DNA of 64,000 nucleotides, taken from the NCBI GenBank assembly GCA_951406725.2, contig OX597828.1:52948001-53012000 (forward strand), written 5' to 3'. Shown in pieces: positions 1 through 47,556 of this stretch. Position 1 is the first letter of the stretch, and every line of letters begins with the position of its first letter. The position numbers were made by a program, and so were the translations under genes. Below the pieces are notes generated by a model, which worked only from the letters and a program-made list of their open reading frames with translations, was not told the origin of the DNA and made no database searches. The stretch is from Octopus vulgaris. Lineage: Eukaryota.

Positions 1-31
<31 letters not shown>

Positions 32-491
32 ATGTTTATATATACATACAGTAATGTGCTCAAGCTCAGTTATTCAAGTTTCGGTCCCATTGCATCATAT
101 GATAAACACGCATTTTTATTATAATCTCGAACGGATATAGAAGTTGTAAGTGAAATTAATTGATAGCAAAGTGTGGAGATGCCCTTCCAATGGATCGTAC
201 AGATTATATACACAAGTAGTCAAGCAGATTCTGCTTAGAAATTGCATTAGCGGTACACTGATATGCGGCACGCTAAACCACTTTATACATTAATTCAATG
301 AATAAATCCTTCATCGAAAGAACTGGACAGTCACATGTCAAATTAGACCAAGGTTTTCATCATCCCCATCACCGTAAATATCTGTTGTATGTGCGTGTGC
401 ATAAATAAACAAAGACACACACACACATACACATAATATATTCCATCAAAAACTTTCACGGTGTGTCAAATTAATATATTCACTGTGTAAA

Positions 492-5250: not shown

Positions 5251-5296
5251 AACAGAACGTTTCGGCTGATATACCCTCCAGTCTTCATCAGGTGTC
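5251..5296 (-). ncRNA. Minimal type I hammerhead ribozyme motif (Penelope-type)
   Basis: Minus strand ACAC-CTGATGA-A-GACTG-(GAGGGTATAT)-CAGCC-GAAACGT-T-CTGT: canonical core, 5-bp stem II with one mismatch, palindromic ACGT stem III. Confidence 0.65.
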
Positions 5297-24161: not shown

Positions 24162-24220
24162 ACATGCACACATAGATATAAACATAGATATATATATAGT
24201 ATATTTCTGTATAAATATAT

Positions 24221-24263
<43 letters not shown>

Positions 24264-24344
24264 GGTCCCGGGTTGAGTCGGGGTTAACCACAGTAAATAA
24301 GGTACTCAATACATAGCAGAGTAAATTAATTTATTTTATAGAAG

Positions 24345-24397
24345 GAGCTTCTACAGGACTAGAACTGTTTCATTCAAAAGAAATCATCAGGAAGCTC
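24345..24397 (-). ncRNA. Type I hammerhead ribozyme motif within ~200 bp element 24261-24465
   Basis: Minus strand GAGCTTC-CTGATGA-TTTCTTTTGAAT-GAA-ACAG-TTCTAGTC-CTGT-A-GAAGCTC: 7-bp stem I, canonical core, 4-bp stem III, GUA cleavage triplet; stem II is 3 bp with a U-U mismatch at its base. Confidence 0.75.
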
Positions 24398-24488
24398 ATC
24401 AGCTTCCTGATGATTTCTTTTGAATGAAACAGTTCTAGAACTCCTTCTATAAAATAAAATTAAAATATATTTATAAATATAAAAATTA

Positions 24489-24540
<52 letters not shown>

Positions 24541-25108: not shown

Positions 25109-25135
25109 TACTACACACATACGGTCTTGTAGTAG

Positions 25136-25369
25136 AAGGCGGAGAGCTGGCAGAAACGTTAGCACGCCGGGCGAAATGCGTAGCCGTATTTCGTCTGGCG
25201 TTACGTTCTGGGTTCAAATTCCGCCGAGGTCGACTTTGCCTTTCATCCTTTCGGGGTCGATAAATTAAGTACCAGTTACGCACTGGGGGTCGATGTAATC
25301 GGCTTAATCCGTTTGTCTGTCCTTGTTTGTCCCTTCTGTGTTTAGCCCCTTGTGGGTAGTAAAGAAATA
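25136..25369 (+). mobile_element. SINE family A (tail i) with 13-bp TSD
   Basis: GGTCTTGTAGTAG at 25123-25135 and 25370-25382. Confidence 0.92.
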
Positions 25370-25375
25370 GGTCTT

Positions 25376-26660: not shown

Positions 26661-26931
26661 GTACTTTTTACTATCGGCCCAAGGCCTATTAATAATAATT
26701 ATTATTATTTTAAATGCCGCCGAGGTCGACTTCGCCTTTCATCCTTTAGAGGTCGATAAATTAAGTAGCAGTGATATACTGGGGGTCGATGTAATAGACT
26801 GGTCTCCTCCCACTAAATTTTGGCAGAAAAGTTTATTATTATTAATTCAATTTTTATATTACAATATATTACTGAAAGACAAAGTCAGTTCGTTTGTGGT
26901 TGAGCTTGTATATTTTATGTGTGTTGCGCAC

Positions 26932-45992: not shown

Positions 45993-46217
45993 CGAATATC
46001 CGTACATATTTATCAATATCTATATATATATATCCATCTATCTGTCTCTCTGTCTACCTATCTATCTATCTCTAAACACACACACTTTCATACATATATG
46101 TGTGTGTGAACTTGTTTGTGTGTATGTATATATATGTATGTATATTATATGTAGGTCCCGGGTTGAGTCGGGGTTAACCACAGTAAATAAGGTACTCAAT
46201 ACATAGCACAGTAAATA

Positions 46218-46302
46218 ATTTATTTTATAGAAGGAGCTTCTACAGGACTAGAACTGTTTCATTCAAATGAAATCATCAGGAAGCTCCTTCTATAAAATAA
46301 AT
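46218..46302 (-). ncRNA. Type I hammerhead ribozyme motif closed by a perfect 23-bp stem I (element 46151-46302)
   Basis: Arms 46218-46240 and 46280-46302 are exact reverse complements; between them the minus strand reads CTGATGA-TTTCATTTGAAT-GAA-ACAG-TTCTAGTC-CTGT-A. Confidence 0.75.
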
Positions 46303-46945: not shown

Positions 46946-47556
46946 AAGGCGACGAGCTGGCAGAACCGTTAGCACGCAGGGTGAAATGCGTATCGGTATT
47001 TCGCCTGCCGTTCCGTTCTGAGTTCAAATTCCGCCGAGGTCGACTTTGCCTTTCATCCTTTCGGGGTCGATAAATTAAGTAACAGTTACGCACTGGGGTC
47101 GATGTAATCGACTTAATCCCTTTGTCTGTCCTTGTCTGTCTCCTCTATGTTTAGCCCCTTGTGGGTAATAAAGAAATAGAAATAGGTATTTCGCCTGCCG
47201 TTACGTTCTGAGTTCAAATTCCGCCGAGGTCTACTTTGCCTTTCAACCTTTCGGGGTCGATAAATTAAGTAACAGTTACGCACTGGAGTCGATGTAATCG
47301 ACTTAATCCCTTTGTCTGTCCCCTCTATGCTTAGCCCCTTGTGGGCAATAAAGAAATAAGTAACGTTAGCACGCCGGGCGAAATGCTTAGCAGCATTTTG
47401 TCTGTCTTTATGTTCTGAGTTCAAATTCTGCCGAGGTCGACTTTGCCTTTCATCCTTTCGGGGTCGATAAATTAAGTACCAGTTGCGTACTGGGGTCGAT
47501 CTAATCGACTGGCCCCCTTCCCCAAAATTTAGGGCCTTGTACCTAGATTAGAAAAG
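46946..47556 (+). mobile_element. Trimeric family A SINE composite inside one 18-bp TSD
   Basis: AATATACCAACTGGAATG at 46928-46945 and 47557-47574; three core units between them. Confidence 0.92.

Follow-up and report, generated by a model that had tools for sequence, protein, structure and literature searches.

A fold-back with hammerhead cores on both strands in octopus DNA is a stump insertion of a young Penelope-like element

The fold-back at 24261-24465 of the window, the 64-kb stretch of octopus DNA analyzed here, is a head-to-head stump left by the insertion of a young Penelope-like element, and about 1,800 such stumps were counted in the genome. The parent, as assigned by its protein motifs, (TA)n targets, and pLTR hammerhead, is a Hydra-clade element, and the sequences of its copies indicate that the stump was probably formed by two-ended priming of reverse transcription and head-to-head joining of the resulting cDNAs. 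Nothing sets the locus apart within its family, and insertions of this kind are known; the layout, in which an inverted pLTR bears a tail, both strands have hammerheads, and stem II has a U·U, is already published for the clade. It is the family, not the locus, that matters: the accessible text of Craig et al. 2021 (PMC8557442) calls hammerhead function in Penelope-like elements unclear, and that of a study of an anole element (PMC11167929) reports no RNA ends at the cut. The parts of the locus are collected in Table 1.

Table 1. Parts of the fold-back locus, in window coordinates
Feature	Position	Strand	Basis
Left (AT)n target tract	24200..24260	.	AT tract at the start of 30/30 aligned copies
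Long ("outer") arm, 136-nt pLTR end, from the inferred transcript start (+1 = 24396) to the outer reverse-transcription start (24261)	24261..24396	-	136/136 identity to the pLTR directly upstream of the L174 ORF; 34/44 scored outer arms end there
Type I hammerhead, predicted cut 24352|24351	24346..24396	-	Fold, subfamily variation pattern, sister-copy scars
Competing hairpin over the cut site and stem I 3' strand	24336..24355	-	Prediction only
"Tail", about 70 nt, long arm only, between two inferred reverse-transcription starts	24261..24330	-	47/47 junction records
Junction filler CATC	24397..24400	.	24397 = extra G at -1 of the long arm; junctions vary by copy
Short ("inner") inverted arm with second hammerhead core, lacking +39..+46 and G49	24401..24463	+	G49 loss recurs in the family
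A/T-rich filler and right (AT)n target tract	24464..24530	.	Sequence

A sequence-only reading of this DNA had proposed a complete type I hammerhead on the minus strand, cut between 24352 and 24351; motif and position are both confirmed, and sister copies carry scars at the predicted bond. With the unit numbered on the minus strand from +1 = 24396, the predicted cut is A45|G46. Stem I (AGCUUC/GAAGCU, 6 bp) pairs +1..6 with +46..51, and the core consists of CUGAUGA and then GAAAC, with the core words at +7..13 and +26..29. Stem II is formed by U14·U25 and three pairs closed by a UUUU loop, and stem III (ACAG/CUGU) pairs +29..32 with +41..44 around an 8-nt loop and leads to the cleavage triplet GUA. 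The features that define a type I hammerhead, namely CUGANGA, GAAA, NUH, and three stems, are all present. The G10.1-C11.1 pair closing stem II is absent, with U·U in its place. This mismatch had been named as a possible defect of the motif, yet it is not private to the octopus sequence: 14/25 Hydra families in the hammerhead table of PMC8557442 have U·U at the base of stem II. Literature searching, with subscription journals and Repbase outside its scope, found no report on the 10.1-11.1 mismatch among the papers listed.

The hammerhead core pattern has four matches within the window against 0.07 expected. An Rfam search of the locus gave nothing at gathering level; below threshold there is a 16-bit Hammerhead_3 match to the plus arm only, and microRNA matches were set aside as due to the hairpin alone. 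Since there is no gathering-level match and the motif in isolation folds like its shuffles (z = -0.89), it is the family that makes the case for a ribozyme. In the predicted RNA from +1 to +136, a competing 8-bp hairpin with a 3-nt loop lowers the probability of stem I from 0.7-0.99 to about 0.13. The inverted duplication around CATC, with a second core on the plus strand devoid of a cut site, was likewise borne out; the loss of +39..+46 and G49 from the plus arm removes the 3' strand of stem III together with the cut site. The sequestering hairpin, put at about 38 bp, measures exactly that: 24359-24396 pairs perfectly with 24401-24438, at a folding energy for the fold-back of -87 kcal/mol (z = -16), and the predicted hammerhead pair probabilities are 0.000 in a minus-strand read-through transcript.

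The family is large. Within 2.8 Gb, 5,612 sites match a 35-mer of the motif exactly (0 for the control), and head-to-head junctions with two cores within 30 nt give 1,789 matches genome-wide, a count in which the 50 matches listed fall in 48 loci. The 40 candidate copies scored, out of 996, all match most or all of 210 nt at 89-100% identity. Thirty aligned copies have the outer end and the (AT)n flanks in common and differ at their junctions. Among 47 junction records on contig C1, the long arm is intact in 37 and the short arm in 28; the samples that were read come mostly from the first part of this contig. A second family copy lies within the window at 46151-46300 on the minus strand, and its short arm starts at the predicted cut (+46) and is joined via stem I microhomology, a type of junction found 29 times in the genome. 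An assembly artefact was ruled out because the arms differ, the junctions vary, and the unit is present in runs of 14 studies (possible source runs included). None of the runs listed for it is labelled as RNA, and they were covered as contigs, from which starts, ends, and strand cannot be read. A 6-kb repeat at L097 proved to be a segmental duplication, not a tandem element.

Longer copies contain the 3' region and, further upstream, an ORF, and copies found through the N-terminal part of the reverse transcriptase (RT) are partial tandems running from pLTR through a short leader to the ORF. In one of these (L174), the pLTR lies directly upstream of a broken RT and GIY-YIG ORF, and the sister copy L181 has an intact ORF of 713 aa with YRDD and VYTCEV...YIG. 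A copy with a full-length ORF (L180) ends in the same kind of fold-back. Among 7,992 scored candidates, 1,117 are homologues of the 713-aa protein, at about 40% identity and with PF01541 and PF00078 in some of their rows; a Pfam search with the ORF query fragment of the parent gave no valid match, and a PDB search gave none. The protein has DKT instead of DKG, RWR where 22/23 aligned homologues have RWK, a linker CNCPDKTTC that fits CxCX5C, and CDLC and CMH near the C-terminus. No cysteine pair lies between GIY and YIG, where Neptune, Nematis, and Penelope-Poseidon would call for CCHH with two cysteines, and an assignment to Neptune was rejected. Insertion into (TA)n, a pLTR hammerhead, and partial tandems are all found in the family. 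The clade's length of <3 kb, a tendency and not a strict criterion, is exceeded, as the element reaches about 5.6 kb overall with 3.1 kb from the end of the ORF to the 3' hammerhead in L152. The family has no match in the literature searched, and it is set apart from Hydra-1_Obim by its hammerhead and protein sequences.

Further repeats were observed within the window and beyond it. A hammerhead-like core at 5259-5291 on the minus strand (CUGAUGA...GAAAC, with a long stem II) belongs to another repeat family and is probably another Penelope-like end. A sub-threshold RVT_1 fragment at 1732-2052 on the plus strand is likely a decayed LINE, and abundant SINE-like repeat copies, some of them tandem, occupy 25135-25370, 26709-26800, and 46960-47500. 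An unrelated inverted duplication flanked by (AT)n (L097:4570-5220) is possibly a fold-back insertion of another family. The genome also holds a second Hydra-like family (46% identity rows), which is very homogeneous, has many open frames of 727 aa, and often occurs as inverted pairs.

The ends of the arms carry most of the evidence on how the stumps form. In 47/47 junction records on contig C1, one arm has the tail and the other does not. The first 100 arms listed among unselected 35-mer matches have their 5' ends at -1/+1 in 26 cases, at +2..+7 in 26, and further in in 20; on the upstream side none ends at -2..-8, six end at -9..-14, and 22 are long. TATAAAT stands 22 nt before +1 in 100/100 long arms listed of 2,766, with 18-26 allowed and the spacers varied. 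The cDNA ends thus pile up 29 nt below the TATA box, frequently with an extra G, and this G at -1 has 971 matches. It is found at 8/10 unbiased informative junctions vs 0/24 arms with the element's own upstream sequence, where the -1 base is T, C, or A in all 24. No long element in the genome has G at -1 under the TATA motif, which makes the G a feature of the junction, and because the base preceding it is mostly T (24/44), snap-back on stem I does not fit. A 3' splice site at +2 was ruled out, as no upstream exon is common to the copies. Ends at -9..-14 were seen at L062, L089, L183, L230, and L367, mostly in one subfamily, where a second start site is possible.

In the mechanism that we consider probable, the enzyme of the parent element would prime reverse transcription at both ends of a cut (AT)n tract, and would do so at two fixed sites just below the 5' hammerhead, in the 5' pLTR of one capped RNA. 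We infer that the transcript starts at +1, that the cDNAs run off at the capped 5' end after about 136 and about 65 nt, with the additional G at -1 as a copy of the cap, that they are fused head to head by host end joining, often via the AGCT palindrome, and that few templates are cut by the ribozyme (about 1/100 arms end at the cut), most being copied uncut. The two cDNAs would be made separately, mostly from one RNA. Copying of the cap as an additional G is a behaviour of reverse transcriptases. Six ends per 100 arms at -9..-14 speak against this mechanism; two of them are internal deletions and the others are not explained by it. The AGCT palindrome at +1 could also attract junctions by itself.

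The same copies can be read differently. The mirror arm could have arisen by self-priming, with one cDNA, or an antisense template, folding back at the palindrome and then being copied, as head-to-head palindromic junctions of rotifer Penelope elements have been read (PMC3846280). A perfect AGCT palindrome is indeed the commonest junction (24/42 flush arms of the unbiased set, where a palindrome counts for each of its two arms), and the arms of a pair nearly always agree in their subfamily letters, with 6/47 flagged, mostly for alignment offsets. The two arms of L368 have a point change in common, and the same foreign sequence on both arms of L361 and L363 fits fold-back copying as well as it fits two cDNAs. 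Against self-priming stands that a lesion of the long arm does not usually pass to the short arm. G49 lesions occur in 11/94 arms, yet in both arms of only 1/47 pairs, and there the lesions differ; several long arms carry the lesion and have an intact short partner. These unshared lesions favour two separate syntheses over fold-back copying. The arms of L063 differ in loop III letters, and some junctions carry filler flanked on either side by an extra G. Self-priming appears unlikely. That the 200-nt fold-back is itself mobile as a whole, in the manner of a MITE, SINE, or retrozyme, is hardly credible and largely refuted: there are many full-length look-alikes at 89-99% identity with fixed outer ends, but almost every copy has its own junction and its own short-arm end, the TATA region upstream is missing from the stumps, and their arms fall in the same subfamilies as the long elements. 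The loci that were read contain no head-to-tail arrays, only segmental duplications that include the flanks (L096, L366). A non-LTR retrozyme was rejected on similar grounds, the units in the loci read being head to head or solo and not head-to-tail tandems with a hammerhead each.

Lesions in the arms bear on whether the ribozyme cuts. Among 94 arms chosen by their junction only, substitutions in +8..+51 are frequent at N7, at two sites in loop II, and in loop III. Deletions among 93 arms affect G46 in 7 and G49 in 13, and no other position of +8..+68 in more than two; the short arm in the window is an extreme case of this G49/G46 lesion class. The G49 lesion has 504 matches genome-wide and is commoner in arms ending near +1 (11/94) than in long arms (1/100; p = 0.002), in line with a predicted fold that is likelier without upstream sequence. 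Quasi-palindrome repair was rejected as its cause, since it misfits the second loop III subfamily and the variants that also lack G46. The cut site itself was sampled through 117 arms with a non-A base before G46, of which 30 were read and classified by eye: 19/30 begin exactly at +46, 9 of them with 6-nt microhomology and 10 without, and 11/30 have a change or insertion at the bond. At the control, the single position +43 (47 matches, 20 read), 1/20 begins there, so that Fisher's test gives p = 3e-5 for all 19/30 and p = 0.03 for the 10 without microhomology. In five loci (L313/314 and L361-L364), both arms start from +46 with foreign filler between them; the last four come from eight further paired loci, the other four of which do not have both arms at +46. 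Among 12 further single matches, about five begin at +46 and the remainder are changes at A45.

Individual copies were observed beside these counts. In L361 and L363, the same foreign sequence stands on both cut-starting arms, as would result from the joining of a 3' cleavage product to another RNA or from a jump of both cDNAs to one acceptor. In L323, +46 follows directly, and in sense, on endonuclease-coding sequence of the element, a junction that would fit a template jump from the cut end. In L093, about 180 nt of unrelated repeat sequence is captured between the two arms.

Sister copies that start exactly at the predicted cut suggest self-cleavage in the animal, and the +46 ends are best accounted for by RNA that physically ends at the predicted bond. 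The evidence does not all point one way. The commonest scar, G49, lies 4 nt off the bond at the apex of the competing hairpin, and structure-induced slippage is possible there; in 9/19 ends at +46, the 6-nt microhomology favours the join anyway; and the accessible text of PMC11167929 describes no RNA ends at the hammerhead cut and cleavage that is dispensable in vitro. As the main caveat, the modelled hairpin over the cut site could both restrain cleavage and cause the G49 slips. The chances seem to us about even that the stumps are a fossil record in which one capped RNA, beginning at the first base of the hammerhead, was copied twice from two fixed sites and had sometimes already been cut by the ribozyme, with cDNAs that stop at, stumble over, or jump from the bond. 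Should this reading be true, it would provide direct genomic evidence of in vivo cleavage by a Penelope-type hammerhead with a U·U in stem II, would imply that cleavage is gated by the competing hairpin, and would trace the inverted pLTR to twin priming.

The fold-back had also been read as a built-in antisense lock on the ribozyme, with the intact motif on the strand of candidate host exons. The lock is right in thermodynamic terms: in a read-through transcript of either strand the antisense arm comes first, the hammerhead fold is lost in prediction, and by geometry the ribozyme would be trapped in double-stranded RNA. As a selected device for regulating the ribozyme or protecting a host transcript, it is very improbable. 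Support comes from the abolished hammerhead fold and from A>G changes on the antisense strand in 4/5 runs guessed to be RNA, against 0.05% or none in three DNA or unlabelled runs. In contigs, the change at 24343 has 75/653 and 604/2,643 depth in two guessed-RNA runs vs about 0.05% in two others, and changes at 24361 and 24364 appear in two more runs, with none in the fifth guessed-RNA run and one DNA run; no sense-strand change is listed in the same runs. Edited hairpins are a weak hint at the level of the family, from contigs with a guessed RNA label, and do not amount to function at the locus. Against the lock stand about 1,800 copies with heterogeneous junctions and nothing special about this one, the fold-back being the usual form of insertion (1,789 junction matches), and there is no switch to release it. 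The dead second core is a lesion of this copy and no design, given the 37 long and 28 short arms intact in 47 records. No host exon is confirmed: Pfam gave no match on 107 minus-strand ORFs of the window and only two sub-threshold matches, RVT_1 and TILa, on 85 plus-strand ORFs, a search over ORFs picked from 434+ by complexity in which short exons would be missed. The mirror arm is most likely a by-product of integration and not a regulatory lock.

The octopus family is young and abundant, its ORF is intact, its start sites are defined, and it bears scars at the predicted bond, which makes it a ready substrate for testing both cleavage and the origin of the inverted pLTR; the 727-aa Hydra-like family is a natural test of whether the scars generalise. 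The approximately 1,800 near-perfect hairpins could also feed RNA editing or silencing in the octopus host.

In L1 twin priming, two target-primed cDNAs are joined by microhomology to give a 5' inversion. Unlike those of L1, the octopus cDNAs cover the same stretch of template and have fixed start sites. The literature search, again with subscription journals and Repbase outside its scope, found neither a report of cut-site scars or twin priming in Penelope elements nor an application of L1-type twin priming to them among the papers listed, and the accessible text of PMC13282606 does not mention hammerheads. With the Hydra clade as described in PMC8557442, the family shares a C-terminal GIY-YIG, DKT, a CxCX5C linker, the lack of CCHH, (TA)n targets, and a type I hammerhead with CUGANGA-U...U-GAA, as in 14/25 listed families; its ACAG/CUGU-A stem III resembles those of Hydra-1_aMil, Penelope-1_NV, and Penelope-1_SK. 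In the same source, Penelope-13_HM has a 5' inverted copy and a hammerhead listed on both strands. Unlike the clade, where elements are generally <3 kb and tails 30-40 nt (PMC8557442), the octopus element reaches about 5.6 kb, its 3' region being 3.1 kb of simple repeats, and has an 8-nt loop III, a tail of about 70 nt, and thousands of copies. Hydra-1_Obim has another hammerhead and another protein, and the portion of the PMC8557442 supplement consulted gives 0 matches to the octopus stem I.

Type I hammerheads in pLTRs and a palindromic word in loop III are shared with metazoan Penelope-like hammerheads (Cervera and de la Pena 2014, PMC4209133) and non-LTR retrozymes (bioRxiv 10.64898/2026.07.22.740005), sources that also describe paired hammerheads on opposite strands, 100-700 bp apart, in Schistosoma. 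Unlike these, the octopus unit has no G10.1-C11.1 pair and no tandem array, and its stem III, at 4 bp, could support activity in a monomer. Endonuclease-bearing Penelope elements (Arkhipova et al. 2013, PMC3846280) have similar head-to-head inverted pLTRs, a palindrome at the junction, a tail on one arm, microhomology joins, and a TATA-like motif in the pLTR. In contrast to those elements, the octopus stumps consist of two arms only with one end position, and their unshared lesions point to two cDNAs more than to self-priming, which that study proposed. A mechanistic parallel in vitro is Poseidon of Anolis carolinensis (Frangieh et al. 2024, PMC11167929), with two internal starts, nicking of both strands, and a predicted dimer. 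Both have AT-rich targets, and under the proposed mechanism the octopus element would also share with it two internal initiation sites, one on either side of the tail and just below the hammerhead where pLTR and ORF meet, the cutting and extension of both target strands, and the use of mainly uncut RNA as template. Anole Poseidon belongs to another clade and, in the accessible text of PMC11167929, shows no RNA ends at the hammerhead cut, whereas genomic copies of the octopus family begin there.
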